Source: Elusimicrobiota bacterium (GTDB lineage: Bacteria; Elusimicrobiota; Elusimicrobia; F11). Taken from it: DNA of 64,000 nt. The translations under genes were made by a program, and so were the position numbers. Shown here one piece after another: positions 1 to 25,877 of the stretch. Location: positions 256,001 to 320,000 of the forward strand of contig JBGAON010000003.1 of the NCBI GenBank assembly GCA_044221725.1, read 5' to 3'. Position 1 is the stretch's first letter, and the number at the start of each line of letters is the position of its first letter. Below the pieces are notes generated by a model, which was not told where the DNA came from, did not search any database, and saw only the letters and a program-made list of their open reading frames with translations.

Positions 1-40
1 CGAAAGAAAACGTTTCCCCGATCCCAAACGAAGTGTAAAC

Positions 41-628: not shown

Positions 629-699
629 AACACTGTTACAACACTGTTACAACTAATTTACAACTCGTTAATGCGATCTTAATCGCCTCTCGATAAACT
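629..699 (+). promoter_or_regulatory. Array 2 of 11-bp repeats (Pho-box-like) plus -10 element of the giant gene
   Basis: aacactgttac twice (perfect), then aactaatttac, aactcgttaat, gcgatcttaat (629-683). TAAACT at 694-699. No canonical -35 or Shine-Dalgarno. Confidence 0.6.
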
Positions 700-704: not shown

Positions 705-3700
705 ATGATGCGTCGAATACCGTCGAAAAACGTGAGCATTTTAAAAAAATTCACAGCGGTTGCTGTGTCGGCTATTTATTTGCAGGTGAACATTGTTTGG
801 GCCACTCCCACGCAAAATCCTGCCACGCTTCTCACGCATTCTCCGACGATTTCACAATTCTTCACGCACTTCTCCAAACCTGCCGATAACACTCCGATTG
901 TTTTCCACGCGAATCCCGCCGACGATCCGAACCGGTTCCTCCGCAATCAACGTAACGAACAAGCGTTCATGAACCCCGCCGACGTGGCGACACGCGAAGC
1001 GCGCGCGAACGACGCGCAAGTCGGGCTGGGATTCACGGGCCGAAACCCCGCGGGCCAGATAACACAACGGTTGGGGCTGCCCGTAGAAAATTTGACGGTC
1101 GGCGACCTGTTAAGAGTGGTTCCAGTTCGAACACGCGAAGCAATTCTCGATGCATTCAAGAAAGACGACGGCGCTGCGCTGAAGCTCGACGTGCAAAACG
1201 GAAGGATCGTGATCACCGGAAAAGAAGGCAACAACACGGTCACGATCAAAGCGGACATCAAGCACGAAGGTGGCCGGCAAATTCTCGCGGTGAATCGGAT
1301 CGACAAGTCTGTTACGCAAGAGCGCCGACCGGAGAACGCCGCCGACAAACAGGAAAAAGGAAAAGTCACCGAGCAAGATGTGCTCGGCAAGCAGCACACG
1401 ATTGACGGCCAGAAATTTGACGTGAAGAAAAACGAAGCCGGTCAGTTGGTGCCGGTCGACCCGGCGACGGGCAAACAGATCAAGCCGGTCGTCGAGAACA
1501 AAATGAAAGACGTGTACGGCCGAATCCACAACGTGAAGATGGAAGTGGATCATTTCGAGCTGCGCGACGGCCAGCTGTTGGCGGTGGGACGAAACCTGAA
1601 CCTGAAAGGCGGTGTGGATTTCCGTTTCGGTGGTGCTGACGACGGCGCGGGCGACGGAAAAGGTTTCGGTAACGTTCCGGGCAGTCACAATATTACAGCG
1701 ACGATTCGCGACGGCGGCGTCGGCGTGTTCCAAGTGACGGACCCGAAAAAAGAGTCGGCGGTGGGTGTGATTGTGCGCGTGAACTTGGAAAACGGAAACG
1801 CACGGCTTGATCACGCGGCGGTTACGTACCAGCCCATCAATCCGACATCGACCGATGTGAAAATTCAATTTCAAGCGAACAACGGCGCGATCACGCAACT
1901 CGCGACATCGAAAGACGCCGGCACAACCGCGGTGGGTAATCAACAGCTCCACATGACCACCTGGAATGTGGAAAGCGGCGCCGAGACAGTGAAGATGAAC
2001 GTGAAAGGCAAAGAAGTCGGTGTGCTCGCGTACCTGAACATTCAACGCGGCACAATTTTATCCGATCAAAAGGGCGGACTCGTTGGGCACGCGGTTGTCG
2101 ACGAGAAAACAAACACGGCGACACAAATCTATTTTGCGGGGAACGCCCGCGGGCAAGAACTTGCGGCGCTCGCGGTCACGGACAAACAAAACGGCAAGCT
2201 TGAAAAAGTGGACGTGATTCTGCAGAGCGAAAGCGGAAAGATGAACAAAACGCTGAACAAAGATTCGGACGTGAAAGTCGAAGCTGCTACGCTCGCGAAG
2301 CTTGAGAAGTTGGATTTCAACGGGATGGACCGCGCCGCGATAAAACAAGCGATCACGGCCGTCGTCGGCACCGGCAAAGAATCGTCGGGTTACGAAGTGA
2401 ACACGAAGGTGAAGGTGAACGGCGCCGAAGCCGATTTGAGAATCACGACCGGAAAAGACAAAGACGGAAAAATGGTCATCCTGATCGGAACGAACAACCG
2501 TGACCTGGCGATAAAAATCTTTGGCTCAGAAACGGTGGCGAAAGCCGAGAACAAAGTCAAAGAACAATTCGACAGCGTGAAGAAGGAGCTTCCCGCCGAC
2601 GCAAAATTCACCTACCTCGAAGCGAACGGCCGCATGCAGGCGCAAGTGGTGTTCAAAGTTCCAGGAACGGACCGCTTGGCGTCCATTCTCGTCGACGTGA
2701 ATCTCGAAAAAGCGGACGAGCCGACGACAGTCGTGCGCGACGGAAATGCCACCGAATATCTTTTTGGCGCTGGGCGCGCTCCCGGCATATCCGTGGAAGG
2801 ATTGCGCACCAACATTCGCGAATCGATTGGCAATCTGGACAGGCAGATCGCGGCCGAAACGACGCCGAGCAAGAGACTCGACGAACTAAAAGCAACGCGC
2901 GCGAATTTCGCGGAAAGCCTGAAGAAGCTTGATTCTCCTGAAACAAGAATCAAAGTCACGCAAAGCACATCGATTGGTGCGCTGAATTTCAATCACCTGA
3001 GCATCACTTACAAAGACGGCGGGGAAGAAAAAACGATTTCTGCCGTTTCTATCTCGCAAGGCGAAAACCCCGGCGTGTTGCGGTTTTCCGTTGAAGCGAT
3101 GCAAACGCTGGCTGGAAAATCGGCAATGGATTCACTCGAAAATCGCGTTGTTGGCAACGCACTGCCGCTTTTCGAAGCACTGGGCATTTCAAAAGCAAAC
3201 GTGAGTGTGAAGTTGGAAGGCGTCACTGTTGGGGCGGACATCCAATTTAATTCGCTAGCGACGGTCACGCGGGGAACCGAAAAAATTGCGGTGCCGGTGA
3301 ATGGTTCCATCGCGAACCCCACGATTGACGTGGACTCCGCCGTGCGCCTCGTTGGCAAAGACAAAATCCAAGGGTTCGAAAATGCGCTTCGTCAGGACGC
3401 TCTTGGCGGCGTGCAGCTCGCCATCGCGCAGGCGCCCACCCCGCAAGCAAAAGCGGAAGCTGAAAAAGTGCTCGCTGTGATGAAAGCGGCGTTGGCGGAC
3501 CCCAACACAAAGGCCATGCAATTTTCTGTGGGCGACAACGGCCAGTTAACAATGACGATGCGCGGTAAAGATTCGAACCAGCAAGATTTGCTGATCGTCG
3601 GCACCATGGGCTACAAGGGATTTGAAATAGCGGCCGCGCGCGGCGCCAATTGGCTGCTGTCGCAGACAACGATGACAGACCCATCGACGAGAGCGGTGGT

Positions 3701-6700
3701 GCAGCAAACGTTTATCACGGTCTCACGACCAACCGAGGCGCTCGCGTCTGTTATCGGCGCCGTCTTCACGCCCGCATCAACATCAATCGAAGTCATGCGG
3801 GTGACGGCCGATCGTGGGCTGGTCTCGCGCGATTCTGTGAGATCCATCGAGCGCATCGCCGGCCGAGAAATTGTGTCAGAGAAAATAATTTCGAGCGATC
3901 AATCGACCGGTCAGCGCATTGAAGATCTTTATACACCAGGTTCCCACACAACCCGCTATTTCGAGAACGGCGTTGAAGCGGCCCAGCCAATCCGCGGCAT
4001 TTGGGGCGCCGTGAGTGGGATTACTTACCAGTTCAACGGACGCGACCTGGCCGCCTCGTGGACCAACTTGGAAAGCCGCGCCGGCGATGGCACCAGCATT
4101 TTGTTCCTCACACGAAATGGTGTGCGCGAAGGGCACGTAGAGAAATCAGCGGAAAGAAATTCGCTCGATTTCATTTACACGAACGCTTCCTCGAACGGCG
4201 CTGTTTCGTTCGTCGGCCAAAGAATTGAACGCACGAGCGATTCTTCGCTGACCGCGCAGTCTGTCGGACAATTGGTTCACTTAAAAATGGACGACGGAAA
4301 AATTGTGTTGGGTATTTACGGGGAGGGCCGGGGCCTCACGCTTGAGCGAAATTTAACCGACAACAAAAAAATCGGACTTGGAGATTCGTTCCGGTTTGAT
4401 GGAAACCAAGTTACGATCATCGCGAAGCCCGGCTCGCGTACCGGTGAAACTCAGATTGATACGGCGATCGAAGGTCAAATTGGTCGTTTGACAACAGTTC
4501 TCTCGCCCGACGGTCTAAAAACCGGCGTCGTCACAAAAATCGAAAACGAAACAAAGTTGACGCACACATCCAACGGACGAACGAGCGAGTTTACGCTTCC
4601 CGCCGGCACGGTTGGCCTCACCATTGGAAACGAATTCGTGGTGACCTCACAAACTCGAGCAACCGTGGTATCGGATGGCCGGACAAATAACGTTTTGATT
4701 GATCCCGGATCGAAATTTTCGTTCGCGGTCACGCCGACCAACAATGTCGGCGGTCAACTCGGAAGTATGGTGAGCGGAAGTTACTACGTCGAAAATGGTC
4801 ACCTGAACGCCGGAAAAATTTCCAACGAATCGAGTGTCCTTCAAATGCAGGGTGGTGGTCGTGGTGCGCAAGCAAATGAGGTGGTCGACCGCGAAGTGGA
4901 TGCTGAAGGCAACACCGTGGTGGTTCGTGGACGAATTTATGTGCAAGACAATCAGCTGAAGTTCAGGGAAGGAACGCTGTTCAATAACGTCGCCGTTGAT
5001 GAGCGGTACGTGCGAAGTTTTGATTACCGCGTCGGCGCCGGCGACAAATACGCGGTGCTTCAAAAAGATGGATCGTTTCAGGCGGCGTTCCGTTCGCGCT
5101 TCTCGTTAAACAATGAAATTCGCGCCGACATGGAAAAATTTATCGACAAAGCCGAAATTCGCGCTCAATACATCAAAGAAAATGTTGCGAAGGTTGTCGT
5201 TTTCGACTCTCAGGGACAGCGCGTCGGAGAGTATTCGGTTAACTACAAAGATGACATGCAGCGCGTCCAAGAGGCGCACGGCGTATCCGGAGGTTCCGGG
5301 GGCGCCGGAGTTTATTTCACAGATACGAATCGCGTTCGAATCAAAAATGGTGCACTTCAATTTGACAGCGAGAAAAATGACGAGAAAGAGGTTTTTCACG
5401 TCCTCGATGGCAACGGAAAATTCCAGCAGCGAAACGAAATCTCAATCATCCCGAAATTCGAGATCCAAGTTGGCAATCAAAAGGCAACGGTAAAAATTAC
5501 CGAGCTGCAAGACGCCGGCGGAAAAACCATTGTTAAGTCGATCAAGTTGTTCGATGGCGCCGGCAAACTGTTAAGAGACGTTAGCGAGGTTTCCAATCTA
5601 AGACTCGCGAAGGCCGAACAAGGCAAAGATCAGCAAACCAAATACGACGCCCGAGAAAATCTCGAGCGTGAGATTCAAGACTGGAAGTCGTACGCGGAAA
5701 CCAAAAAGGTGCCGGGTCAGGAAAATGCGCTCGGCTATCTGTTACGTGACCGATCGGCTGACATGTTTGCTGTGCAACGCAATGACATCGGCCGCCCCAG
5801 TTTCATCGGACTTCTGCAAGTAGCCGTTCAAGGAGTTGTTGTTCAGCCCCTCGAAGCTCTGTATTCACTGACGATTTCTCGCACGACAACTGTTTCCGAT
5901 TGGATGGCGCGCAACAATCTGTCGATTCAAGGGATCGAGGCCAAAGGCAACGCGGCCGACTGGTCCGCTTTTACGAGGCAGATCGAACGCGGAGAAAAGC
6001 CGTCGTCGGATATTTTGAAAGCGGTGGGCCTGCAGAAAAACGGATTTGCGCTCGATACGTTCATCAGCGTCGATTCGTTTTTGGGACATATGTTCGCCGC
6101 TGACAAAGCGATGAACATGGTAGATGCGAGGGGAAATGTCAGCATTAAGAATATTGGACTCGCGGGAGGAATTTGGGTCGCCACCGTATTGTCGGGTGGG
6201 AGCGCAAGCGCGGCGACAAGCGTTGCGGCGAACGGCGTTCGTGCCGGTTGGTTGTCACGTGTGGTTTGGGGTGGCGCCAGCAGCACCCGAGCTGCCATCG
6301 GTGCGCAGCTTGCGCGCTACAACGTTGTGGGTGCGGTGAGGGGCGCGGGTTTTTGGGGCACAGCGAGGGGTATAACACTCGGTGGTTTTCAACTTATGTT
6401 GCGCGCCGAAGCCGTTAACGCAATCGATCAGGTGCTCACCTCCTACAACATAGAAGGATTTTCCGATAACACCTCAAAATTAACGGTGACCGCCATCTGG
6501 AAAGTTGCGCTCAGCGAAATTTATTTTGCGGCACCGTTGCTCGCTCCTTTGTTCGGATCGTCGCGGGCCGCGACGTTTGGAGTTACGGCAAATTGGCTAA
6601 CCACGGCGAAAAATTTTTCGGAATCGTCCGCAGCGGGTACGTTGCTCGTCCTTCGTTATACATCCACGGCACTTGTCGGCGCAGCAATCGGAGCTGGCTC

Positions 6701-9700
6701 GCAAATTTTGGAAAACCAAGGAAAGTTGACCTGGGATACTGGATGGGCGGCTGTGAAAGGGGCGTTGACAGCTGTTGTGGTGCGCGCGGTATTTACCGGT
6801 ACGACAATCGCCATCAATAAGATTGGAAATAAGATTGAACAAAAAGCCGCTGCCGGCAATCCATCCTTAACAAAAGAATCATTCTCTCTTGATAAACGAA
6901 CTGAGAAGCTGGTGGAACATTCTCAGACCGGAAAAAATCTCGCGGGACAGAAAGCGGAGTCCTTCCGCGAATCCAGCAATGTTCATATTCGAATCGCCGG
7001 ACTACGGTCGCTTCAAATTGGCCGTGACTTGGTGACGGGGATTAGCGGATCGATCACCTTTCAAATTCTGTCCGGTAAGAATGTGCTCGAACGTCAAAAC
7101 GCAATTGATGCGCTGAGGCAGGGCGCGTTTATGGGCTTTATCTTCGGTGGCGCGCGCATGGCCGTTACGAATTGGGCGACGGCTTTTAAAAATATGAGCA
7201 CGGTCGGCGGGTTGGCCGCGTTCAACGCGCAACGCATTCAATCGGGTGTGATGATGGGTGTTTGGGAAGTGAGCGTGGCGCCGTTCACCGGTTTTATTTC
7301 TGAAGCGTTTTACGCGGCGACAGATTATCTCGGCCTCACGACCGACAAGGACAGAGCGGACCGCAACGAACAAAAAGAACAACAGCAAAAAGAACGCGCG
7401 GCGCTCAAAGAAAATTTTGGGGCAACGCTCGGTGAGGTTCGCTTTCAGTTCAATAAATTCTGGGGCACGTTCCAGAATATTTCAGGTCTGCATCCGTTCT
7501 TCTCTCTCGGTCGCCCGGGTGTCAACATTTTCTCGAAACCTGTCGAGGGAATTGTCGGACGCTACACGAACGCGACCTTCAATCAGATTTCCAGTGCCCT
7601 CACCAAAGTTCGGATCACGGGGACCGCAAACAATGTTCTCTCTAATATCTTGTGGCAAGCGCGCGGCACGGTGCAGTTCTTGTCAACGAACGCGATTGTT
7701 AACCCGATTAACATCAACACATTCTTCATTTATGAAACGGTGGGCTTAAAGGGCGCGATGGCTATCGGACTCGTTACGCCGATGAAAGAAGTGAATGGCC
7801 AGTTGGTTCTCGTCGACAAAAATGGCGATGCGATTAAGGGGGACGCCGGCAAGCCGAGTTTCTTCCAAGAAACTGTTGCGACTGTTTTTCGAGTGGCGGG
7901 GTTTATTAGTGCGCCGATTCATGCGAGCCCAGATAAGAGTGCCGAAGGGGCGTATGCTCGTGGACAGATCGGTTCGTTGAGTGCACCGGAGACCTTTATC
8001 GGCAAAAGCGTGCGAGCGGTGGAAGAAACCGTCGGCATCGTGGACAGACGAAACCCACAAGCCTTTACACTAGCGAACAACCTGAAAGAACACTTGGAAA
8101 GCGGAAAAGGCGGCGATTTCGAATTCACGGCGACGGACGGACGTCGTTACACGTTGAGCGGCCAAGAAGCGCGCGACCTTGGAAACCAGGCACGCGTGGC
8201 GGTTTTGTCGACGCCGGAAATTGCGAAGGCCGCGGAGAAGGCGGGCGTGTTGCCGGAACATATCGCATACAACCCAGTGACCGGAGAAGCGCGCGTGCTA
8301 ACGCCGAACCACTCCGCGCCCGCAGGATTTTTTGAAGTTCGTCTGCCAAATCGAGCCGCTGAAACAGCAGCGAAAGAAACCGCTTCGGCGAAAACCGGTG
8401 CTGATGTTGCGGGTTCCGCCGATACGTCAAAGCCCGCGACCAACGATTCCACGAAAGCGCCGTTGGCGGAAACGAAACCCCAGGAGCCTACGAAACCCGC
8501 GAACCGCGCGGACATCGGAAAAATTAACGGAGTAAAAGTCGAAGCTGTCGAAGACGTGGACGGCAACATCCGCATAAAGATTGCCGAGCCTGTGACCGAT
8601 GACGTGGCCCGCGATCTCGAGAGCAGAGTTTTTGTTGTTGAGAACGGTAACGCAAAAGAAGTGGCCGTGGGGCGCTTGGGCGACATTGTCGTCAAGAACG
8701 AAGACCGAGCCAACAACGCGCCGCTGAAAGTAACCGAACTGACGCCCGAAACAGCACTCGATCGTGCCGCCCGGTCCGATGCGAGCCCTGATGTGCGTTC
8801 GGTCGCCGGACTTCGACCAGGGGAAGTTGTCGTAAAAATGGGTGTCGAAAATTTTGTGGTTGCCGTGAAAGCGAGAGCCGAAGGCGCGTTGGCAAACAGC
8901 CCAGCGCAGGATACCAGCGTCAAAGCCCGAGCGAAAGAAGAGGTGAACGCAAAACCAGAAGATGCGGTGAAGAACGTCGCGGGTTGGGACAAGCTCGCTC
9001 CGGAAACACAAGCCGCGGTCCAACGTTTGATGGCGGATCCAACGATTGGCGCAAAAGTTCGCGGCATGCTGGCCGAGATGGGTGGGCGCGGTCTTGAAAT
9101 GTTGGGCGCTCTTTACGATGCAGCGGGTCACGATACCTTCACCCGCGTTATCGAAAGCTTATCGCCGGAGCAGGTAAAAAGTTTGGCGAAAACAATGAAC
9201 GAACTGTCGCCGCTCGCGAAATCCAATTTTGTTTCCATGGTGAAAGATCTAGCGCGTAATGGCGAAGCGGCGCTGCGCACGTTTCTCGCTGTTGTCTCAA
9301 CGCTTGGACCGAAAGTATCGAACGCTTTATTTGAGGGCCTGAAGCCCGCCGGCCGGGAAGCGTTTCAAAAAATCATTTCCATTTTTTCGGATGCGACAAA
9401 AGCGACCGCGCTGCAAGGTTTCAAAAATGTTTTGGCCGAACTAACGCCAACGGGTGCGCAGGCCTTGGCTTCTTTCTTCAACGAAATTGGCGGCAAAGAC
9501 GGAAAAGGGGTGACGACGTTCGCAAAATTTTTGGAGATCGCCGGGCAAAAAGGCAACGAGAATATCGCGAAGACCTTCGGTAAGCTATTAAATGGCCTTA
9601 CGCTTCTCGGTGGCGCCGCGCTCGGCGCCGCGTTCACTCAACTGGGCCGTGCCCGCGAACAAACGTTTGCGCAACTGATGCGCACGTTGAGCAAATCCGA

Positions 9701-15700: not shown

Positions 15701-18700
15701 ATATTTCGAGGCGATCTCCGCGAGGGAAGGATTATTGAAGCAGCAAAATTATCGCTCAGATGCGGGCGATCGTAAAGCTTTACGCACGATTGCCCTCGTC
15801 GGAGCCAACGGCGATGCTCGCTACCGCGTGGCCGCGGAGGGGATCAATCTCATGCGTGGGCGTGGACCGGACGGCGGATCTTGGAATTCCATCGATCGCG
15901 ATGCGGCGGTTCTCATCTACTCGGCCGATCAGCGATACCATGTGAAGGCGTTCTACGAACTTCTTGAGATCAACGGAGCCTCCGGCGTTGTGGCGGCACT
16001 AAAAAAGAAAAACGTTAGTGGCATTCAAGATGCGATCGATAAAGCGAAAAGTATTATTGATAGCAAAGAAGCAAATGCGAGTGCGTGGTTGCGCGCCGAA
16101 CTTGATACGCATAGGGTGATTGATGGTAATCGTCCGGACCTTGCAGAGTTTATTGCAAAAACGGCCGCGGAGCGAAAAAGCATTGTTTGGTCGACGATAG
16201 GCCGAGCGCTCAGCTTCAACGCAATTGGCAAAAACCGCATGGACGAGATCATCCTCGGAACGGACACATCGTTTACGGAGGCCGCTGAGTTCCATCAGAT
16301 AGTTAATCGGGTGGATCGTAACTTCACTGGTGAAAACCGCAGTTACCGTTTGCAGATCGTGGACCCGACTAATGTCGACGCGCGGTTTTCAGAAGTGGTT
16401 AGCCTGAACGACGACGTGAGGCGGTTTGGTCGCCAAGGTTTATTCACCGACGATTACTTCGGCAAAATTTGGGAATCACATAAAAATGGCGACACTCTGA
16501 CGCTCGAACAGAAGGTGAAGCTCAATTCGCAGCTCGCGTCGTTAGAGAACCGGTCTCGAAACGGACAGCATCATTTGCACGAACAGGTTGGCGCAAAGTT
16601 AACAAACGAAATTGTAACGCTAATTGGTGCGGAACTTATCCGTCGCGGGAATTCTCTCGGGGCCGAGGCTCTCGAAAAAATCAAAGGTGAAATGTTGGAT
16701 CATGACGAGCGCGGCAACGATGATGGTGGCACTTACAATCAAAGTCCGAACGAAATTGCCTACAGGATTGTGAAACGAGAGGTTGAGAAGGCCGAAATTT
16801 TTTATTCAAAAATCATTAATTCCGAACACGTGGATCTTGATCTTGTTCAATTCGCTCGATCGCGCTTAACGGAAATTCAGACCGAATTCTTGGGTTTTTC
16901 AAAACGGGTTATTAACGACGTCGATAAGAAAACCGGGTACCACGTTGGCGAAAACTATCGGAATGCGAGTTTTGCAACGGCGAACACGGTTCGCAAAGTT
17001 TTTGACGCTGCGATTGCAACCTCGGACTTTTTGTTACCGAACGTGGAGCTAAGCCATGCGCCGACAGCATTTACGGCGGCAGTGACACATATGGCTTTTG
17101 GCAACGTGCGCGCGCCGCGCGATGCGTTGCCTGCTGTTGCAAACGATAACGTTTCGAAAGTCGCGTTTGTGAACGCAATTAATCCGCACGCTCCGGAATC
17201 CGTATCCGCAGAGAAACCCACCACGATTGACGGGAAACCCGTCGCTCTTCCGCCTCTCCAAAATTTAACGCTTTGGCAACAAGCCGCGTACAGCGTGTAC
17301 TCTTATTTCTCACCGGCGCGGCAAAGTATTGACGATGAAAAGCGCCGCGCCGACGCGATGTTGCTCGCGCGAGCGGGCTTCGTTAGCCAGGCTGTCGCTG
17401 ACAACGTGGCAAGCAACGATCCGGTTGTCGCGGGTCGCGCGCTGCGCCAGATGGCCATGGAAGTGGCGGACCGATGGGAACGGTCGGGTCAGCGCATGGA
17501 AAGGTTTGATTTGCCGACTCTTATGTTGGTAGCGGAGAACGTTGTGACGCAGATGGATCAGGTTCGCGCGGCGATTGCGCCAAATATTCTTCCGAAAGTT
17601 GATGCGGACTGGGCGGGCCCGGCGCAACTTAATCGAATCGTGGCGATGGCCGCCGCAAGCCCAAACACGCCTGCTGTTGGCAGTTGGGAGTCGGACAGCG
17701 AAAAAACCGCGAAACGACGCGACTTGCCTTCGGTTCGTCAGGAAGTGATCGCCCAAGGGATTAGTGATTTAGCGGCGCTTCTTCCGGTCGATACGCGCGC
17801 CACGGTAGTGCCTATTGTGCGCAACGCGCGCGCGATGCTTACGACCATAAACCAAGCGCGCGACTACGAAGCGCAGCAGAGAAATATTGCGTTGGGTGCC
17901 GGAGGCATCGGTGCCATGATCATGCTTCAACTCTCTATGCTCTATTACTCACCGCCGCGGCAATACAATCGCGTGCTCGATCAATCGTTGGCGACCCTTG
18001 CGGGCAAAGGCGAACCTGCGAACCGTGCGGCTATTGTGGTTGGCGTGATGGCGCTCTTCCACCTGAACACTCCGGTTTTGCGGCAACGTTTGCGCGACGC
18101 CGTGGACGTGATTGCGAACACCGACCCGGGTTTGTTGGATCATGTGACCGCGCGGGAACTCGCGAACGTGGTACGGGCAAAAGATCCACAAAAGGAACTC
18201 GAGAATCTTCTCTATAAAAATATTGGTTTTGCGTTGCCGCTTCCGACGGCCGTCACGCAAACGCTGAAGGTTGCCGGTGTAGCGGGGAGCGTGGTCGCCG
18301 GTCTGGGCACAATGTTCGGATTCCTATCGCTGAATTCAGCGCTCACCATTTTCTCGATCGCGTTCGGTTTGAATTTCTTGTCCGCCGAGCGACCCACCGG
18401 AGATGGACCCAGCGTTTGGGCGCGTCTGCAATCGTTCGGCACCGGCGTAAAAAATGTCGGTGGTGAAATCGGTCGATGGGTGTGGAACAACAAAGTGAAA
18501 TCCACAATCGCTGTTTCGCTGGTGGTCGGAACGGTCGCGACCGGCGGAATGACGGGCGCGTTTGGCTCCGTTGCTGACCTCGGAAGTTATTTTACGGCCG
18601 CCAATTTGAGCAGCGCTTTGGAAACCGTGTTGCCCTTCGCGCTGCCGCTTTTGGGTGGCCTCGCCGGAAAGATGTTTAAGAAGTACGAACTCGAGATCGC

Positions 18701-21700: not shown

Positions 21701-24700
21701 TTTGGCCGCCGTGATGTCGGGCTTTTCCATCTCAGAGGCGATTGCGTTAGCGAACATCATGAAATCAACCGACGCTCGGTTCTTCTCCGGTTTTTCCATG
21801 AATTTCTTGGCGACCGTTGGTGTGCCGGTGCAAACGGTCCTCGAGGTGAGACAGTGGCAAGACAAGCAAAGCCAAGCCGGCGCGATTATGTACGAAAACG
21901 TGCGCGCGCAGTGGGGAACAACAAGCATTGGCACGAATCGCGCGCTTGATATTTTGAAAGGTGCACCGCTCTCGAGCGTGGAACGCACTTCGCTTGAAAC
22001 ACAGAGCCAGCTGAACGAAACTTACGCGGTCGTGAACGCGGGTCCAAACGCAAATCTAAGATCGCAAATTTTGGCGAGCGCCCAGACCCTGCTGGAGCTT
22101 GCTGGTGTGAGCGCTCCGGTTGTTGCTTCGTATCTGCGGTCCGTTGTTTCTGCGCGCAGCGCTGAAGATATTCACACGCTGAAAGTGCAGACGTCGCAGC
22201 AACTTCCTGACCGTCAAACCGCGACGTTGCTGCACAATTTGATCGATGCGTTCCACGCCCCGACCGCCAATTCAGCGACGATGGTCGTGTTTCGTGCGGT
22301 CAAGCAACTTAATGTTGACGATTCGTTTGTCCTGCTGCTCAACCAAACGAATGCCTCAAATGGTACGTGGCAGGTAACCGGCGTGGTGCCCGCGGGTCCA
22401 AACGCCGGACAAAAAATAAACGTTGCGGTTGTGACAGTTTCGCCGCAATCACCGCGCACCACCATCGCGATTCAAATCGGCGTAGCGGAAGGTAAGAACG
22501 GCCCGGTTGTCGAATTACCGACCACCCATGCGAACGGTTCGACGTTGCTCCTTATTAATAGTGGCGATTACCAGGTGGTCACCAGCGGTTTTGGTCCGCA
22601 GCCCAAAGCGCAAGCGCTGAATGGAAACCTTGGGAATGCTGCGCCGACCGCGCAGTCCGTGCAATTCACCGATGGAAAGAATACGTTGCCGGTGCGCATT
22701 GCGGTTCCGACGGCGATCACGAACGAAGCCATTCGTTCGTCGCGCGCGCAAGCGGCGATGGTGTTTGGCCGCCTCAATCAATTGGCCACGGCCAACGATG
22801 CAAGTCCGATGGATCCACTCGTGTTTCAACAAGTGGAGCGATTCTTATCACCGGCGATGCTGCCGCTTTTGCGCGGTAACGGTTCGAACGAGGGAAGCGA
22901 GCCCGATCTTTTCGTGGTGCGCGGCACGAACAATCAAATCGAAAGCATGTATGTGCTGAACGCGAACGGTTCCTATGGCGTGTTTCGACGCACGACAGTG
23001 GACGGACAACAAACCGTAACGCGCGGCGAACCCACGCACGTTCCGCCGATGAACGCCGACGCCTACGAGATGGCGCAAATGCCAAACGGTCAATGGTCGG
23101 TTGTGCCGGTGCTCACGCCCCTTTCAACGATTCCTCGCTCGGTCGCCCGCGAACGTCGCGATCACGGCGTTACAAATGCCGGTGTGGCGATGCGCGTGCT
23201 GGGTGGGATGCTGGCGGCTCCCTTCGCGATGTTCCGGGGTGTTGCCAATCAAGCAAGTCGTCACCGCATGGCGTCCGCGTTGGTGTTAATGTTGGTCGCG
23301 GTGGTGTCGGCAAACGCGCAAGAGCCAATGATGCATCAAACGGTTTCCACCGCGAAAGATTTGGTGGCGCAACCGATTCCCCACATGTCGGTCGGCGCGG
23401 TGGCGGCCGTGACCGCGATGGGGTCTGCGCTCCTCGGCTTCATGGGCGTTCGGTCGTACCTTGCGATACGCCGTGAAGCACCACCGGCGAATATACCGAT
23501 CGTCATGTCCGCGAAAGATTTCAACACAAGGGTGAACGAACAAAAACTTTCCTCACCGGACGGAATCTATTTTGCGTCTCAAGAATTGCTCGGCGTGCCG
23601 TACAACGGCGCCGAAAACGCGGTGGCCGTGAAGGTTCAGGAAGTTCGAATCGCCGGCGACGGACAAAGCCGTTACGTGCTGTCGTTGCTCCCCGCAAACA
23701 CGGATTCCGCTAGCACCGCGCCACTGCAGTTGGCAAATTTCAGTGGGTATATGCCGAACGCGGTGGTGCGAATGTTCACGAAGTTGCCAACCAATGCCGC
23801 GCAAATTTCCGCTTTCTTGAAATCGGATGATGGTCGTCTCGCTAATTACATCAGCGTGCCCGCATTGTTCGGAACAAATCCATCGTTATTGAGCGGTCTC
23901 AACCTTGGATTGGATGACGTTCAGGTCCATTTCAAAACACTAAAAGACGTATTTGAACCGTCGACGCCCGAAGCGCAACGATTGGCGTCCAGAGAATTCA
24001 AAGCGTTGGTGGCGAAACTTGTAGCGGAGGCGAGCGCGTTTGCGTCATCCGAAAGCGTTCAATTGCGGCCCACCTACGTGGACGCCATCATGAAAAAATT
24101 TGGTCCAAACGTTTCGTTCTTGCAACGCGATCCGAGTGGCCGTGCGTTCGTGTCGAGCGGTTACGATTATTCAGCGGCGCTCGCGTTGTGGCGAAAGGGC
24201 GTTGTGCACCCGGTTCTCGTGTCGAACGGCCAGCAAATCTATTTTGTGTTTTCGAGCGGCGAAAGCGCGCTCAGCAAACTTAATTACGACGGTACGAAAG
24301 GCAAGACCGAGCGCGGCAACGAAAAGCGCTATCTGAGTTCGGAACCGGACGGAAGTTTGCTCGCGGTCGCGGGCAAACCCTACTTGAACGAAGGGCAGAA
24401 GGCGATTGCGCGACGCGCCGTCGAAATCTTGTCGGACATTTTGGTGGGCGACGGCCGCGCACCGCTCGTCTTGACCGACAGGCAAGTGGCCCAGCTTTTT
24501 AACTCCATCGGCGACTTTGTGCGTGGTGGCACGCCGAAGGTCAACGTGCGGGGTTCCGATCTCGGATTGCCCGGCACCGATGTCGACAAATTGATTCAGG
24601 AGCTCGGCGAACAGATGCGTTCGCTCGCGCAATCCAACGCGCAGATTCTTGATCTCGCGCAGCGTGGACAGATGAGCGCTGTCGGTGTGTCGGCGGTGCA

Positions 24701-25814
24701 CCATTTGGGTCTCGTTGTCGGCCTGACTCGGAGCGGAATCTCGATTCAAGACTTGTCGGCGGATGTGGTTCGCGGCATGGACGCGGATTTGAGCGCGTCT
24801 TTGGTGCGCGGTGCGCAGGCGAAGAAACGTCTTTCGGTGCTCACGAAAATGGATCCGCAACAATCACAGAAACAGATGCTGCACGAATTCTTGGCGCTTA
24901 CCGGCTTTGATCAGAATTATGTTCTCAAGAACGAGCGCGGTTATTTCACGCGAGATTGGTTTGAGAAAGCTCTTTTTGCTGATGCGTCGGAGAATCGAGA
25001 GGAAGCGGTGCGCGCGATTGTGGTCGCATTCGCAAAAGATATTGCGAACCAGCAAGGTTTGTCGGCGTACAAAAACCAAATTGAAAATGTTGAAGTTAGG
25101 CTGCTGCCCAAAGCCGCGTTTGAAGAAAAATATGGCGTGGGTCCGGCCGCGTTTGAATCGAACACGATTATCATTCAATACAACGAAGGCTTAACCGGTG
25201 ACGCGATGAAACAACAAATGTTGCTCGCGGTCGCCGCGGGTCTGCACGAAGTATTTCACCCGGTGTTGGATGCGGTGGCGCCGGAATCCATGGCGCCGGT
25301 TTTGGCAGAAGCGATCATCAATAATTGGGTGCTGCAGGCGTTGCGCGGTGAAGGGGGGCATCAATTGCCGGAGCTCGCGCGGCTGTTTGAAATTTTTGTG
25401 ATTCAACGCATCGTGAAGCAAGAAGAAACGCCGGTGCTCGTGATTCCCGAAAATATTGCGCTCGCGATGGCAAAGTCGAAAATGCTCAACGATTTGGCGA
25501 CCGCGAACGCTATCGCGGTTCTGGCGGGCAATTCTGCCAATCATAATCCTTTGCTCGCGCGGTTCCGCCATGTGACCGAAGCCGAACTTTTGAAGAAGAA
25601 AGTGGGCGAGACGCGCAATTCAATCGTGTCGTGGGCGTTCGATAACTTTGGAACATCCAAAATCATCGTGCTTCAAAACGACGAAGCGAAAGCCACCTTC
25701 GCTCAAGTGTTCAACAATTTGCCACCCGAATACATTCTGCCGCTGGCGAACAATCTGTCCGACATCGCCGCTCTGCAACAGAAAATCGCCGAACTCGTTA
25801 AATCCCAAGCCTAA
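705..25814 (+). CDS. Giant (8,369 aa) secreted/membrane multidomain protein with embedded SecA-like ATPase and two HExxH metallopeptidase motifs
   Basis: 25.1-kb ORF without stops. Signal-peptide-like N-terminus ending IVWA. HEVFH at 11625 and 25245. Walker A ALPAAGGKT at ~14526-14552 and DEVD at 14940. Several transmembrane-like clusters. Confidence 0.9.
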   Translation: MMRRIPSKNVSILKKFTAVAVSAIYLQVNIVWATPTQNPATLLTHSPTISQFFTHFSKPADNTPIVFHANPADDPNRFLRNQRNEQAFMNPADVATREARANDAQVGLGFTGRNPAGQITQRLGLPVENLTVGDLLRVVPVRTREAILDAFKKDDGAALKLDVQNGRIVITGKEGNNTVTIKADIKHEGGRQILAVNRIDKSVTQERRPENAADKQEKGKVTEQDVLGKQHTIDGQKFDVKKNEAGQLVPVDPATGKQIKPVVENKMKDVYGRIHNVKMEVDHFELRDGQLLAVGRNLNLKGGVDFRFGGADDGAGDGKGFGNVPGSHNITATIRDGGVGVFQVTDPKKESAVGVIVRVNLENGNARLDHAAVTYQPINPTSTDVKIQFQANNGAITQLATSKDAGTTAVGNQQLHMTTWNVESGAETVKMNVKGKEVGVLAYLNIQRGTILSDQKGGLVGHAVVDEKTNTATQIYFAGNARGQELAALAVTDKQNGKLEKVDVILQSESGKMNKTLNKDSDVKVEAATLAKLEKLDFNGMDRAAIKQAITAVVGTGKESSGYEVNTKVKVNGAEADLRITTGKDKDGKMVILIGTNNRDLAIKIFGSETVAKAENKVKEQFDSVKKELPADAKFTYLEANGRMQAQVVFKVPGTDRLASILVDVNLEKADEPTTVVRDGNATEYLFGAGRAPGISVEGLRTNIRESIGNLDRQIAAETTPSKRLDELKATRANFAESLKKLDSPETRIKVTQSTSIGALNFNHLSITYKDGGEEKTISAVSISQGENPGVLRFSVEAMQTLAGKSAMDSLENRVVGNALPLFEALGISKANVSVKLEGVTVGADIQFNSLATVTRGTEKIAVPVNGSIANPTIDVDSAVRLVGKDKIQGFENALRQDALGGVQLAIAQAPTPQAKAEAEKVLAVMKAALADPNTKAMQFSVGDNGQLTMTMRGKDSNQQDLLIVGTMGYKGFEIAAARGANWLLSQTTMTDPSTRAVVQQTFITVSRPTEALASVIGAVFTPASTSIEVMRVTADRGLVSRDSVRSIERIAGREIVSEKIISSDQSTGQRIEDLYTPGSHTTRYFENGVEAAQPIRGIWGAVSGITYQFNGRDLAASWTNLESRAGDGTSILFLTRNGVREGHVEKSAERNSLDFIYTNASSNGAVSFVGQRIERTSDSSLTAQSVGQLVHLKMDDGKIVLGIYGEGRGLTLERNLTDNKKIGLGDSFRFDGNQVTIIAKPGSRTGETQIDTAIEGQIGRLTTVLSPDGLKTGVVTKIENETKLTHTSNGRTSEFTLPAGTVGLTIGNEFVVTSQTRATVVSDGRTNNVLIDPGSKFSFAVTPTNNVGGQLGSMVSGSYYVENGHLNAGKISNESSVLQMQGGGRGAQANEVVDREVDAEGNTVVVRGRIYVQDNQLKFREGTLFNNVAVDERYVRSFDYRVGAGDKYAVLQKDGSFQAAFRSRFSLNNEIRADMEKFIDKAEIRAQYIKENVAKVVVFDSQGQRVGEYSVNYKDDMQRVQEAHGVSGGSGGAGVYFTDTNRVRIKNGALQFDSEKNDEKEVFHVLDGNGKFQQRNEISIIPKFEIQVGNQKATVKITELQDAGGKTIVKSIKLFDGAGKLLRDVSEVSNLRLAKAEQGKDQQTKYDARENLEREIQDWKSYAETKKVPGQENALGYLLRDRSADMFAVQRNDIGRPSFIGLLQVAVQGVVVQPLEALYSLTISRTTTVSDWMARNNLSIQGIEAKGNAADWSAFTRQIERGEKPSSDILKAVGLQKNGFALDTFISVDSFLGHMFAADKAMNMVDARGNVSIKNIGLAGGIWVATVLSGGSASAATSVAANGVRAGWLSRVVWGGASSTRAAIGAQLARYNVVGAVRGAGFWGTARGITLGGFQLMLRAEAVNAIDQVLTSYNIEGFSDNTSKLTVTAIWKVALSEIYFAAPLLAPLFGSSRAATFGVTANWLTTAKNFSESSAAGTLLVLRYTSTALVGAAIGAGSQILENQGKLTWDTGWAAVKGALTAVVVRAVFTGTTIAINKIGNKIEQKAAAGNPSLTKESFSLDKRTEKLVEHSQTGKNLAGQKAESFRESSNVHIRIAGLRSLQIGRDLVTGISGSITFQILSGKNVLERQNAIDALRQGAFMGFIFGGARMAVTNWATAFKNMSTVGGLAAFNAQRIQSGVMMGVWEVSVAPFTGFISEAFYAATDYLGLTTDKDRADRNEQKEQQQKERAALKENFGATLGEVRFQFNKFWGTFQNISGLHPFFSLGRPGVNIFSKPVEGIVGRYTNATFNQISSALTKVRITGTANNVLSNILWQARGTVQFLSTNAIVNPININTFFIYETVGLKGAMAIGLVTPMKEVNGQLVLVDKNGDAIKGDAGKPSFFQETVATVFRVAGFISAPIHASPDKSAEGAYARGQIGSLSAPETFIGKSVRAVEETVGIVDRRNPQAFTLANNLKEHLESGKGGDFEFTATDGRRYTLSGQEARDLGNQARVAVLSTPEIAKAAEKAGVLPEHIAYNPVTGEARVLTPNHSAPAGFFEVRLPNRAAETAAKETASAKTGADVAGSADTSKPATNDSTKAPLAETKPQEPTKPANRADIGKINGVKVEAVEDVDGNIRIKIAEPVTDDVARDLESRVFVVENGNAKEVAVGRLGDIVVKNEDRANNAPLKVTELTPETALDRAARSDASPDVRSVAGLRPGEVVVKMGVENFVVAVKARAEGALANSPAQDTSVKARAKEEVNAKPEDAVKNVAGWDKLAPETQAAVQRLMADPTIGAKVRGMLAEMGGRGLEMLGALYDAAGHDTFTRVIESLSPEQVKSLAKTMNELSPLAKSNFVSMVKDLARNGEAALRTFLAVVSTLGPKVSNALFEGLKPAGREAFQKIISIFSDATKATALQGFKNVLAELTPTGAQALASFFNEIGGKDGKGVTTFAKFLEIAGQKGNENIAKTFGKLLNGLTLLGGAALGAAFTQLGRAREQTFAQLMRTLSKSDLQGFAAFVNTLGEKGQGAILGKILNLLPNANGIPKQVITLGNLFAQLNKTAGQRLADMFMRADAKNELVNLVSSVTKLEPKAAAAFAEVLNNGAAATVIALGILLGSNDKDVRFGAAELLASAGKEGALGLKNVLDAFANLIERGIGHPDAKSDTALENVAKLAAAQLSKFVKESDSAQKQTFGQALRELSRNANGPKDAADIMAHFLASDVGHAALGRALTSFAEHGGMLGRVLMTVTQNAPKKIVDPISGRETDTTNSWVANLLINSIEVSQVGGARDVSPGEMAGRMLRPAFFDVRGKPRTADETTKFTEGVLGSVFNKPPEAFNDREKQMAGDMLEHLAATMSDTQKVAARALADKFGIEVDFGASPEALAAKTEGKDAEAKEDAAVSNNSVADGEEPHPDTGRAAVERSAVGRVLKAVKDFFRSDYGDEFMTHEDVMAKIAYVEQKLFGEDSEHKKVEAGTFGSQSGKDWFDSIRWTDKQVIKENKLGQEDDVIILRATTGGKTVFLMLRDGKVWISKTTLRKNASDVTFFLVSDAARTKELKKSLQGAEGLAETSNIKKVFYKPWIDSKEDKAQFLDALKNDPAILSMLHFWLERGVTPKIMGRLIVGDNARNMGYMHNGSIHRGIETTDIDVFIHEVFHLAFDTKLTPAQKEAIRKRYVDANGERSAEYMKLFDEGIYDAAKYKSGIQKADEAFAQYMEMIAAGTTFLEYKRKGDVVVRLELTKGDVEFFLSQGLITKAVADRAMKLLDAGAASKESEATKDSKPKESTFERATSALRPIITAVGVAVGVTERAAEAPHGAQVVRTEPAGEAKPVEPAAETESRPAAGRSEAEPAKPGEKPLPQDGFDFTETKSDSNPTRLTDTPVNILRKAAYVEALHGREAKLVFEALYRESAGVDAKSLKAALEKIIDNGVKEGTGSDADYWRRSDGTIVTRRGTVIKETGKSYIERRENSGDPGKTNTIVRLFDFDGNQIGEQIAIRGDAATARKQAEDLKMTKTDIEIVTKIAKQYKGKAEFRFEKDDATGVYKIVEIIFPHGAKNVARFNKTFYAAWLNLGAVDEKDKLPEATNQVKALAKDVADKLVDANGKTKNFDLLAQELDRVLEQVKTPADKKVLINEVVKALQARDDISASTKGAHVRELEKAGGKQLDKKDFYRDLVTQVDLNACSNCAVNYNGPMRDDAFARVRSDVQREYPGMSPARRERFAMGRIDASLSPAQRSELGRKEIANGFENYANGLSPDRLSDALFYRNMADAIRNGDTRPSTTARGAEESVWAQNRVDVARARVNYTLNRTSGALDWILGKLEINVDAARVLTSSGWALDRAENTYMSLQMRDKLDVDQGKLIELVSQLPSIENGDARKSAAEDVAAAKLHFEQEKRRLDRGELPNASDFLDFQNILVDQEKESRTPLDLAEKSVKEAKELSAGEKFYGPGLREAIVESKKGEDARFSLIYDRVQTVMKDLLIAPDVYRVEKDGTRTKLTELDKVNPQDVIVLQLPRSVAAKIDRLKRRENTQADWEAAVVDLLAVGKNAADKPIDNKGAVVNAAELNIHQRTALLWAVSQRTFEDQSQPMTREDIAMDQGKRMAFFFGLVRGNEVVALPAAGGKTGAFILAQADFVLRNRSKKNGEKFVLELDVFNSAEAEKYISERERYEGMAIGAALIRPVDGRDFHQNIKKAEEAYDVNKSVISDRGIKLEGVKMIVHDLNSFGFLMLHMGENLTARVSTLVRENVKSVMMDEVDAILMSMMSFINSKTELHASDDDLSRGAVTVRAILKTLELNHTKVDVARYKERSEEKDAADHPNYRYFPSGRVSDEDRKDGVWFTITAAGKVEYSDKFLEKVRSNLEEKSISNREIQNALRAFADTGDGNRSTISRVDGKLKIVPVTRHGPQKGLVDSYRMYNVARTLFENMSRRLRNEEELDEKQVPISKSSATATLIQAIAFRINAIKAAATGTKDDIDSADPSLAPFAQLLTGMGVSVVSQSSYADLKYFEAISAREGLLKQQNYRSDAGDRKALRTIALVGANGDARYRVAAEGINLMRGRGPDGGSWNSIDRDAAVLIYSADQRYHVKAFYELLEINGASGVVAALKKKNVSGIQDAIDKAKSIIDSKEANASAWLRAELDTHRVIDGNRPDLAEFIAKTAAERKSIVWSTIGRALSFNAIGKNRMDEIILGTDTSFTEAAEFHQIVNRVDRNFTGENRSYRLQIVDPTNVDARFSEVVSLNDDVRRFGRQGLFTDDYFGKIWESHKNGDTLTLEQKVKLNSQLASLENRSRNGQHHLHEQVGAKLTNEIVTLIGAELIRRGNSLGAEALEKIKGEMLDHDERGNDDGGTYNQSPNEIAYRIVKREVEKAEIFYSKIINSEHVDLDLVQFARSRLTEIQTEFLGFSKRVINDVDKKTGYHVGENYRNASFATANTVRKVFDAAIATSDFLLPNVELSHAPTAFTAAVTHMAFGNVRAPRDALPAVANDNVSKVAFVNAINPHAPESVSAEKPTTIDGKPVALPPLQNLTLWQQAAYSVYSYFSPARQSIDDEKRRADAMLLARAGFVSQAVADNVASNDPVVAGRALRQMAMEVADRWERSGQRMERFDLPTLMLVAENVVTQMDQVRAAIAPNILPKVDADWAGPAQLNRIVAMAAASPNTPAVGSWESDSEKTAKRRDLPSVRQEVIAQGISDLAALLPVDTRATVVPIVRNARAMLTTINQARDYEAQQRNIALGAGGIGAMIMLQLSMLYYSPPRQYNRVLDQSLATLAGKGEPANRAAIVVGVMALFHLNTPVLRQRLRDAVDVIANTDPGLLDHVTARELANVVRAKDPQKELENLLYKNIGFALPLPTAVTQTLKVAGVAGSVVAGLGTMFGFLSLNSALTIFSIAFGLNFLSAERPTGDGPSVWARLQSFGTGVKNVGGEIGRWVWNNKVKSTIAVSLVVGTVATGGMTGAFGSVADLGSYFTAANLSSALETVLPFALPLLGGLAGKMFKKYELEIAIREGRILPFTNIRIPGFDRVFRQPSPALYALIALRTAREAKEKDLKSRDTAVAENPEYQKLKNQLDNFDADLEKKLDKMPEQYRGTMRQFSQQQKKEIEKQMNDLRDKTPVPGLTVGRLVDAIETRHGKKSNDDKNEILRLALITLGVSPDKALRAVAAVDVLREATAEDSDYDPKEVAAVKEAYHELDTDVLKGKGSLSLDLRMDFARFGAQMKADGKEVTPDALRGEYNGAEFKQAIRYFAQQKNITDDEVALIAQFHDDRNIPVKDLAAAIRKDNLNSLRADKLASEHEKENPDLAKALKKVGATYDAVSAHVRTYLKEEARMTDDEATQVLTLIHGSFGTNTTIDFAARVAEPILSNPLVQNPEAVVAGLLRILIDHAYSDYGVQLAAIEHNLPVERDADTMNLLRRVQHPNAPRNTTLDLGFARALTTIYGFQLPLDVQASGMRQTGYELRNSNGTVARVALSGNTGIQVRVNVAPNGEAPIYGELNYRLANNQIVDVDVQSPLGYQARVGGSVTTSGHANNIAGQAIQFEKVEVGEKPLKTSLFASSLERPVTETPVGLKIETPAQLVAPSAVAHLMGDSLPAKPAQTTPQKLVNRPVDMKLDDLFGLPVVGVLLESAYKAVFGRAPTDADKQQLAQLNSDHKSLAESLFGTNKVPDQYRSLPLPIAMKGEAAVRSFQSEMILAAIKNGTVSPTFQALRFIPNDMLPQNGGTLIVLDRNNSNGWDIRVGENTIGTISKSNNVVTLTLISRQEIPAQIIEPTPPTNMTEWGHYFYDGKPAPKVIAARSVEVRNEIILTVDESPTAPYVVTDIQAKAGGENGRIVREGEKPLMETSGFTFAASPAGFKTMETEITIPGDLRAVEEDDFKSAKTVVMENVTAAMEERFGYDRVSNMDGMEAVVDLLFALHPDLPESLSADEIIDLAFSANPSKDLTDIISEKDGSVFARLASDGAENPDAVKQAWELVSSGKAETVGGLVQALMADNRIGDRLGVFRLAAVMSGFSISEAIALANIMKSTDARFFSGFSMNFLATVGVPVQTVLEVRQWQDKQSQAGAIMYENVRAQWGTTSIGTNRALDILKGAPLSSVERTSLETQSQLNETYAVVNAGPNANLRSQILASAQTLLELAGVSAPVVASYLRSVVSARSAEDIHTLKVQTSQQLPDRQTATLLHNLIDAFHAPTANSATMVVFRAVKQLNVDDSFVLLLNQTNASNGTWQVTGVVPAGPNAGQKINVAVVTVSPQSPRTTIAIQIGVAEGKNGPVVELPTTHANGSTLLLINSGDYQVVTSGFGPQPKAQALNGNLGNAAPTAQSVQFTDGKNTLPVRIAVPTAITNEAIRSSRAQAAMVFGRLNQLATANDASPMDPLVFQQVERFLSPAMLPLLRGNGSNEGSEPDLFVVRGTNNQIESMYVLNANGSYGVFRRTTVDGQQTVTRGEPTHVPPMNADAYEMAQMPNGQWSVVPVLTPLSTIPRSVARERRDHGVTNAGVAMRVLGGMLAAPFAMFRGVANQASRHRMASALVLMLVAVVSANAQEPMMHQTVSTAKDLVAQPIPHMSVGAVAAVTAMGSALLGFMGVRSYLAIRREAPPANIPIVMSAKDFNTRVNEQKLSSPDGIYFASQELLGVPYNGAENAVAVKVQEVRIAGDGQSRYVLSLLPANTDSASTAPLQLANFSGYMPNAVVRMFTKLPTNAAQISAFLKSDDGRLANYISVPALFGTNPSLLSGLNLGLDDVQVHFKTLKDVFEPSTPEAQRLASREFKALVAKLVAEASAFASSESVQLRPTYVDAIMKKFGPNVSFLQRDPSGRAFVSSGYDYSAALALWRKGVVHPVLVSNGQQIYFVFSSGESALSKLNYDGTKGKTERGNEKRYLSSEPDGSLLAVAGKPYLNEGQKAIARRAVEILSDILVGDGRAPLVLTDRQVAQLFNSIGDFVRGGTPKVNVRGSDLGLPGTDVDKLIQELGEQMRSLAQSNAQILDLAQRGQMSAVGVSAVHHLGLVVGLTRSGISIQDLSADVVRGMDADLSASLVRGAQAKKRLSVLTKMDPQQSQKQMLHEFLALTGFDQNYVLKNERGYFTRDWFEKALFADASENREEAVRAIVVAFAKDIANQQGLSAYKNQIENVEVRLLPKAAFEEKYGVGPAAFESNTIIIQYNEGLTGDAMKQQMLLAVAAGLHEVFHPVLDAVAPESMAPVLAEAIINNWVLQALRGEGGHQLPELARLFEIFVIQRIVKQEETPVLVIPENIALAMAKSKMLNDLATANAIAVLAGNSANHNPLLARFRHVTEAELLKKKVGETRNSIVSWAFDNFGTSKIIVLQNDEAKATFAQVFNNLPPEYILPLANNLSDIAALQQKIAELVKSQA

Positions 25815-25877
25815 GCGCTTCGCTTGCGCGTTGAAGTATAATTTCGCCGCCTGATGTCTCACCCCTCTGGAGAACAC

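Follow-up and report, generated by a model that had tools for sequence, protein, structure and literature searches.

A predicted SecA-like motor within an 8,369-residue Elusimicrobiota protein encoded beside a TolC/RND operon

Introduction

A stretch of 64,000 nucleotides from an Elusimicrobiota bacterium (GenBank assembly GCA_044221725.1, contig JBGAON010000003.1, positions 256,001 to 320,000), referred to here as the window and numbered from its first letter, raises the question by what route bacteria carry proteins of 8,000 to >100,000 residues through the envelope. The window contains a giant gene for a protein of 8369 amino acids (aa), which a first-pass annotation made from the sequence had read as a lone toxin-like, membrane-embedded polyprotein with a SecA-like motor. 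Our tentative answer, to which we give somewhat less than an even chance, is that the giant may be a membrane-tethered export motor built into its own cargo; its topology, its substrate and the role of the neighbouring RND transporters are what we infer. The source genome is denoted G000 and other sampled genomes by G and a number; P0001 is the giant and P0002-P0005 are its homologues.

Results

The giant is a single, intact gene

705..25814 (+): giant open reading frame (ORF), 8369 aa (P0001); ORF call, spanned by a single contig

The source genome (2.82 Mb in 5 contigs) has 44 ORFs of at least 1,300 aa, and the giant ORF is a real gene. A single 43,170-base contig at a depth of 32 covers window positions 1-28000 with 0 differences, from a run that may be the source of this DNA, and short pieces from a second study's run cover 30/30 and 28/30 bins of the giant's region; one joint, 21911-27783, with a depth of 3.2 and a 20-letter side, is probably foreign and was discounted. 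RNA contigs from two runs of a single study match 15-22/30 bins of the gene, DNA carry-over not being excluded, and the holders of the giant's DNA are bioreactor, wastewater and sludge metagenomes. Orthologues were found in related genomes; they are collinear with the giant and have a common module order, namely leader, variable arm, Gly/Ala region, CxxC module, SecA-like domain and C-terminal domain. No paralogue was found within the genome itself.

When the whole protein was scanned in five tiles against Pfam and NCBIfam nothing rose above cut-off, sub-regions gave the same outcome, and Rfam returned 0 matches. The earlier view that this is not an RTX or BAP adhesin holds, there being no tandem self-match, no family hit and no prophage context, and no tape-measure family was hit among the libraries scanned, which did not include PHROGs. 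An assembly chimera, an ordinary adhesin or a phage tape measure is thus scarcely credible and already largely refuted: the N-terminal arm, almost unmatched in orthologues, would suit such an origin, but one contig runs through the ORF, the orthologues are collinear, the genes downstream are the same in G001, G003 and G006, and the neighbourhood is a housekeeping one.

The giant carries a predicted SecA-like motor

14280..16844 (+): SecA-like SF2 ATPase, aa ~4526-5380, with a clamp-like insert; predicted fold, Atlas, motif alignment
within 14280..16844 (+): key residues of the motor, Walker A K4615, Walker B D4746-D4749, T4964, R5167 and Q5198/R5202/R5205; alignment
within 14280..16844 (+): long scaffold-like helix, aa 5267-5313, 47 residues, after the second RecA domain; predicted model
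16653..16817 (+): helix-loop-helix, aa 5317-5371, read as a putative two-helix finger; DSSP and aligned ranges

The SecA-like motor occurs once in the genome, and the housekeeping SecA is a separate gene of 895 aa. An AlphaFold2 model built from a 37-row alignment (pLDDT 81.2, pTM 0.82) predicts the two RecA-like domains and clamp insert of the SecA superfamily. In Foldseek, ranks 1-27 were all SecA or SecA2 (best E 8.6e-12; TM 0.27-0.40, with high rmsd), and VIA-align aligned 599 residues with 6itc (Z 17.4, rmsd 4.7; model 11-865, chain 31-777) and 592 residues with 5eul, these SecA-SecY-substrate complexes giving the longest alignments. All ten of the best Atlas matches having a family belong to the SecA_DEAD family or clan (top score 0.93). 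The motor proposed from the letters is in this way borne out by predicted fold. At the level of sequence the link to SecA is absent: a PDB profile search gave 0 hits, hhalign a probability of 1.4%, and Pfam SecA_DEAD nothing above cut-off.

The motif residues are strongly conserved among homologues whose overall identity is 17-36%. Counting the rows that have a residue, out of 37 aligned, G-K of Walker A is present in 27/27, the D, E and D of Walker B in 26/26, 25/26 and 26/26, and the motif III Thr in 27/27, and the same is true of R5167 (29/29), Q5198 (28/29), R5202 (27/27) and R5205 (28/28). Walker A, a DEAD-type Walker B and the motif V and VI arginines are intact, the genome's own SecA having been compared by eye. 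Because the Walker A Lys, the Walker B acids, the motif III Thr and three arginines, residues with assigned roles in SecA, are invariant or nearly so, the motor is likely an active ATPase, judging from its sequence.

The predicted fold also reaches the parts of SecA that follow the second RecA domain, where the 47-residue helix and the helix-loop-helix lie and the alignment extends to residue 777 of 6itc. Only a 3-residue turn separates the long helix from the next, and the helical wing is absent from the model because the helix-loop-helix comes directly after the long helix. Judged by secondary structure and aligned ranges, a scaffold helix and a two-helix finger both appear to be retained in the motor, and only the wing to be lost.

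A query of aa 4501-5400 matched 7/11 genomes of the same family and 0/29 other genomes of the class. A SecA profile matched 21/301 sampled genomes of the phylum (16/89 in family f17, 0/88 in f7; open frames up to 18,984 aa) and 64 proteins among 1.84 billion representatives, counts that are lower bounds since the profile misses diverged copies, as is seen from a G006 copy, with Walker A intact and Walker B changed, that nearly escaped. In this orthologue (G006:C55:12218-30685; L131, L132) Asn replaces the first Walker B Asp, and a second G006 copy gave a Walker A-like match only; G006 is 14% contaminated.

An export operon ends just upstream of the giant

G000:C5:243260-256038 (+): operon PorV-TPR / TPR / TolC-like / RND1 / 289-337-aa ORF / RND2; PorV, TPR, OEP and ACR_tran matches
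1..38 (+): 3' end of RND2, the last operon gene; ACR_tran

The first-pass annotation had stated that no dedicated secretion genes adjoin the giant. This was wrong, as the last gene of the operon listed above runs to window base 38, and the orthologue of an HlyD-type adaptor is found 46 kb upstream of the giant in the same locus. The ORF that separates RND1 from RND2 (289-337 aa) is unannotated. Farther upstream, beyond a secreted giant of 8,776 aa, the adaptor gene is accompanied by genes for a second FtsH, for a histidine kinase and for response regulators (one at G000:C5:212297). One regulator is OmpR-like by eye rather than by family scan and is conserved at the locus in G035, G020 and G252. 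Of the earlier interpretation, the modular layout and the SecA-like motor stand; with an export operon immediately beyond the edge of the window, its lone toxin-like polyprotein shifts towards an export-linked giant.

The neighbourhood recurs elsewhere. Seven genomes were fetched by their RND match; a very long ORF lies within ~4 kb in six of them (G194, G035, G020, G014, G252 and G008) and the contig ends in G002. The operon adjoins a SecA-giant in G000, G007, G008, G024, G053 and G223, and stays beside a giant gene even where the gene order is rearranged. An RND orthologue is carried by 76/301 sampled genomes, among them 21/21 with a SecA-giant.

Further observations concern the operon and its surroundings. 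The TolC-like protein (G000:C5:246623-248689; L082:8623-10689) has an N-terminal extension that is weakly AMIN-like (E 0.09). RND1 (G000:C5:248674-251862; L082:10674-13862) has Asp-Cys in a TM4-like motif where RND2 has Asp-Asp; the Asp-Cys change is also seen in G002 and G008, and Asp-Asn is found in G194, G020 and G252. The second FtsH (G000:C5:207924-209594) has 556 aa, is 39% identical to the housekeeping copy and lies directly upstream of the adaptor gene. The RND-adjacent region of G194 (G194:C2:5031-40841; L091, L093) has a 7,931-aa ORF of RHS-like repeats and then smaller ORFs, possibly one split or frameshifted giant; ~7,000 residues of these repeats are followed by a Gly/Ala region, and a later ORF ends in Ala and contains HExxH. 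Large secreted proteins of a second class (among them G000:C5:215673-242003, with other long ORFs) share a beta-type C-terminal motif instead of Ala, and a member precedes the PorV-like gene in G000, G008, G020 and G035, which hints at a T9SS-like sorting route.

A promoter box and an Ala end common to the giant and a family of large proteins

636..682 (+): direct-repeat box TTACA-N6-TTACA-N5-TTAA-N7-TTAA (exact 647-682; one-mismatch copy at 636); pattern scan
552: weaker copy of the box, between the giant and a divergent small ORF; pattern scan

The box gave 35 matches genome-wide at up to 3 mismatches, and shuffled sequences gave 2, 2 and 0; the exact match at 647-682 is not independent because the pattern was drawn partly from that site. 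Among 1,215 ORFs of at least 300 aa, 26 share a head domain. The box precedes 21/26 of these head-family ORFs against 5/1,189 others, and an Ala-ending C-terminus is found in 21/26 against 124/1,189. The giant has the box, the leader and the Ala tail and so bears both marks of this regulon, box and Ala end; a search of it for the head domain gave 0 matches, the other 26 all matching each other, and no common domain emerged when the 27 class members were compared in pairs by their C-termini. Beyond this genome, the final Ala is present in 9/10 distant SecA-giants that have a stop, and the box lies upstream of the RND-adjacent giants of G007 and G008 (0 mismatches), G020 (1) and G194 (2).

The small ORF divergent from the giant (102-530, - strand; ~129 aa from its likely ATG) has one N-terminal hydrophobic segment, a Gln-rich tail and no Pfam match. 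The longest ORF of the genome, 18,016 aa (G000:C2:219180-273230), has two TTTACA repeats upstream and no Ala end.

Other modules of the giant

705..803 (+): leader of signal-peptide type, aa 1-33, its polar core Y..Q/T.N, resembling leaders of co-regulated large proteins; sequence, predicted leader
804..5984 (+): variable N-terminal arm, aa ~34-1760, probably beta-rich, with nearly no orthologue match; composition
5988..8234 (+): Gly/Ala-rich region, aa ~1762-2510, conserved, poor in acidic residues and weakly hydrophobic, a candidate for membrane insertion or a pore; orthologue comparison, composition
9012..10154 (+): degenerate helical repeat or solenoid-like region, aa ~2770-3150, only in some orthologues; orthologue matches
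11253..11939 (+): zincin-like module 1, aa 3517-3745, HExxH at 3641; orthologue comparison
12951..13367 (+): helical CxxC module, aa 4083-4221, also present and conserved in P0002-P0005 and G008; homologue comparison
17886..18575 (+): hydrophobic cluster 2, aa 5728-5957, marginal; hydropathy
23178..23456 (+): hydrophobic cluster 3, aa 7492-7584, marginal; hydropathy
24432..25811 (+): conserved C-terminal domain, zincin-type HExxH (8181) and E8202, alpha/beta part, last helix ending Gln-Ala; alignment

The leader is evident in the sequence and conserved in orthologues, as had been annotated, and composition suggests that the arm is beta-rich. The annotated Gly/Ala-rich hydrophobic helices were recovered at aa ~1760-2510, and a Gly/Ala-rich, acid-poor segment precedes the motor in 19/20 homologues from several families (counted without a control set; P0005 may be truncated). 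Since a profile of the hydrophobic region (A2) left the distant homologues unmatched, their Gly/Ala regions are matched by composition only. The Atlas matches of the region, RHS-associated at 0.87 and PT-TG at 0.83, lie below the 0.9 bar.

Hydrophobic clusters are present where transmembrane clusters had been proposed (5728-5957 and 7492-7584), but a transmembrane nature is doubtful, the best 19-residue Kyte-Doolittle mean in the giant being 1.78 with 0 peaks >2.0, against 7 such peaks in each RND control. Many homologues do have peaks >2.0 in the same region as the giant's hydrophobic segments. Because the helices are marginally hydrophobic and, in 7/20 homologues, the chain beyond the SecA domain is free of hydrophobic peaks, the multi-pass membrane embedding put forward earlier is uncertain.

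The helical pseudo-repeat finds some backing in orthologue matches at multiple offsets and in an ERAP1_C match below cut-off, and none in self-comparison, which gave no match. The motifs behind the two annotated zincins and CSNC were read correctly: HExxH stands at 3641 and at 8181, and CSNC at 4174-4177 holds both of the Cys residues that the giant has. Zincin 1 is mobile, its homologue in P0003 sitting after the SecA domain. In the C-terminal domain, detected in 9/11 genomes of the same family, both Glu of the zincin signature are conserved in 12/12 aligned sequences, each His in at least 11/12 and the final Ala in 10/12; with HExxH and a downstream Glu conserved, the module has the sequence signature of a zincin metalloprotease. 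Comparison of this module with PDB sequences gave no relevant match, and Pfam and NCBIfam scans of tiles and sub-regions found no toxin domain in the giant.

Neighbouring genes in the window

Downstream of the giant lie genes for a His-phosphatase, SseB and M16 peptidases, in agreement with the earlier remark that no immunity gene is obvious. The SseB-like gene and M16 peptidase pair (26839-30475) occur in the same order in G001, G003 and both G006 copies, by translated starts. A methylcitrate-cycle-type cluster (31636-36532) follows with PrpD, a PEP-mutase/ICL family member, citrate synthase and fumarase C, and at 56094-57520 and 61200-63849 are two CsgG/FlgO-like proteins along with genes for OmpA, TPR and PD40 beta-propeller proteins that look like Pal, CpoB and TolB.

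Discussion

The giant may help to drive its own chain, or other giants regulated along with it, through the cell envelope. In such a mechanism the leader would send the N-terminal arm out via ordinary Sec, and the Gly/Ala helices would stop transfer in the producer's inner membrane, where they may line a pore. The SecA domain, placed in the cytoplasm because it needs ATP, would stay at the ATP side, clamp a chain and push it with its two-helix finger. The first substrate would be the downstream half of the giant itself, with its zincins and C-terminal domain, and the motor might act next on the 26 co-regulated proteins that have an Ala tail. TolC, the RND proteins and the adaptor would carry the product or anchor it at the surface, and there the variable arm would contact surfaces or other cells.

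Several observations weigh against an export motor coupled to this operon. The RND orthologue is on a different contig in G074, G263, G126, G087, G119 and G243, and no RND is present in the flanks seen of G074, G263, G126 and G009. No SecA-like match was obtained in 5/5 genomes in which the RND operon lies by another giant or a contig end (G194, G035, G020, G252 and G002), and 55/76 RND-positive genomes are without a SecA-giant by this profile, which misses diverged copies. The joint occurrence of the RND orthologue and the head-domain family across the 301 genomes (both in 70, RND alone in 6, head alone in 10, neither in 215) speaks for the export motor, but the figures include kin, which are not independent, and rest on an RND cut-off (E<=1e-92) set after the values were seen, a looser cut giving 70/28/10/193. 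No promoter box turned up in the sequence upstream of the G087 and G243 homologues or when the surroundings of the RND operon were scanned. RND transporters are known for small molecules, and a TolC channel is unable to pass folded domains. As for the motor, its finger-tip residue is not conserved, and because other SF2 helicases reach Z 16.4 over ~357 residues, the Z value alone discriminates little.

In a doubtful but serious alternative, the SecA-like domain is one active cargo enzyme among many in a mosaic membrane giant, an ATPase that remodels some other protein or nucleic acid; TolC/RND would serve to export a lipid, a glycan or a small molecule, its only tie to the giant being shared regulation or ancestry. 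The broken linkage of operon and giant in many f17 genomes, the RND-adjacent giants with no detectable SecA, the shifting position of zincin 1 and the acid pair that RND2 retains in its transmembrane motif, as ordinary RNDs do, all favour it; on the other side stand the fixed place of the motor after the Gly/Ala region in nearly all homologues, its single copy in the genome, the retained C-terminal helices that in the model align with SecA translocation elements, and an operon that remains beside a giant gene despite rearrangement. Quite unlikely, in our estimate, is a delivered contact-dependent effector, which comes close to the original idea: the whole chain would be exported, the Gly/Ala region would insert in the target membrane, and SecA would use target ATP to pull the zincins and other modules in. 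The marginal hydrophobic segments of the giant, the RHS-associated and PT-TG leads from Atlas and the G194 arm of RHS-like repeats ahead of a similar Gly/Ala region would suit this, as would the SecA-like domains listed among Amoebophilus effectors in the part of the survey by Zhang et al. 2012 (PMC3482391) available to us. Against it, many homologues have stronger peaks in the same region, no toxin family is matched, the C-terminus is conserved rather than polymorphic, and the genes downstream include no evident immunity gene. Contact-dependent or predatory use would rest only on analogy to Omnitrophota.

The Ala-ending tail might also, independently of export, mark the protein for degradation or extraction by a protease, the second FtsH being a candidate; we give this little chance, and it is compatible with the other readings. 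Non-polar C-termini are known as degrons, the FtsH paralogue directly precedes the adaptor gene and is on the operon contig in G008, and two M41 genes are present in 5/5 genomes with the system. Two M41 genes are, however, also present in 2/5 genomes without the head family, and in G035 the second lies far from the operon.

The membrane-tethered export motor can be extended into an undescribed Elusimicrobiota secretion route, in which one chain would supply the motor (SecA with finger), the pore (Gly/Ala helices) and the stalk (beta arm), and ~26 large Ala-tailed proteins would form the regulon that it exports or injects, helped by a TolC/two-RND/adaptor conduit and by a two-component regulator dedicated to the task. 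This fuller scheme is unlikely as it stands; if true, it would be protein export by AcrB-family RNDs. The modelled domain of the giant appears to keep the pushing element, with all catalytic residues present, and at ~860 residues the motor is expressible alone. The locus further names candidate partners, namely TolC, two RNDs, an adaptor, a response regulator, a promoter box and a C-terminal tag, so that an unannotated giant becomes a set of testable parts.

SecA-bearing giants have already been published from Omnitrophota; in the literature searched, neither a retained finger nor an RND/TolC link was met with. Full-text search returned no paper on an RND link in Elusimicrobiota, most subscription journals being outside its coverage and preprint supplements possibly listing such proteins. 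A recent preprint (10.64898/2026.06.07.730766) has a 20-protein SecA_DEAD cluster, and in the main text seen RND, TolC, efflux and AcrB are unmentioned; as far as the accessible part of PMC11573180 goes, huge proteins of Elusimicrobiota are listed there as poorly characterised.

In the portions of West-Roberts et al. (10.1101/2023.11.21.568195) at hand, Omnitrophota giants have divergent SecA domains that lack scaffold and wing, self-export is suggested, Elusimicrobiota are described as rich in large genes, and SecA giants are also noted in Actinobacteria. The self-export idea for internal SecA domains is weakened because scaffold and wing are reported lost. So far as those portions describe them, the Omnitrophota proteins resemble ours in having a signal peptide, hydrophobic segments, an internal divergent SecA beside a canonical SecA and, in some relatives, long beta arms. 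They differ in that theirs are without scaffold or wing, whereas our model appears to lose only the wing, and in that their neighbours are T2SS/pilus genes and ours are TolC, RND and adaptor genes. Pfam SecA_DEAD is blind to our domain, and the giant is below their 10,000-aa class and from another phylum, Elusimicrobiota. Compared with the Archaeovorin and Dockerin types, as outlined in the same portions, the giant has no C39/S8 peptidase, GT/GH, methyltransferase or dockerin matches and no T2SS-like genes upstream.

A second SecA paralogue beside HlyD- and OEP-domain genes, with its function untested, is described in the part of Kamneva, Poudel and Ward 2015 (PMC4452313) that was consulted. 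By that account their secondary SecA_DEAD locus is like ours in the OEP gene, here in the operon, and the HlyD-type adaptor, here 46 kb upstream; their SecA paralogues are described as proteins in their own right, in which SecA_SW is wholly or mostly missing and whose partners are M50 and GAF proteins, whereas our motor is fused in an 8.4-kaa protein, its candidate inner-membrane partners are two AcrB-family RNDs, and the six operon genes scanned include no M50 or GAF. To polymorphic/RHS toxins, on the sections of PMC3482391 available, the giant is similar in its long arm, Gly/Ala-rich region and zincin-type modules, but its C-terminus is conserved, no toxin or immunity gene is recognised and an ATPase motor lies inside. 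With canonical SecA and SecA2 (6itc, 5eul, 1tf2, 4uaq, 6sxh) it shares the predicted fold from NBD1 to the last helices and the Walker A/B and motif III, V and VI residues; it differs in its 10-15% identity, large insertions, missing wing and embedding in a giant chain, with no cognate SecY found. Together, these comparisons suggest that the giant works like the SecA-bearing giants, yet it is no Archaeovorin, no Dockerin-type giant and no canonical SecA2.

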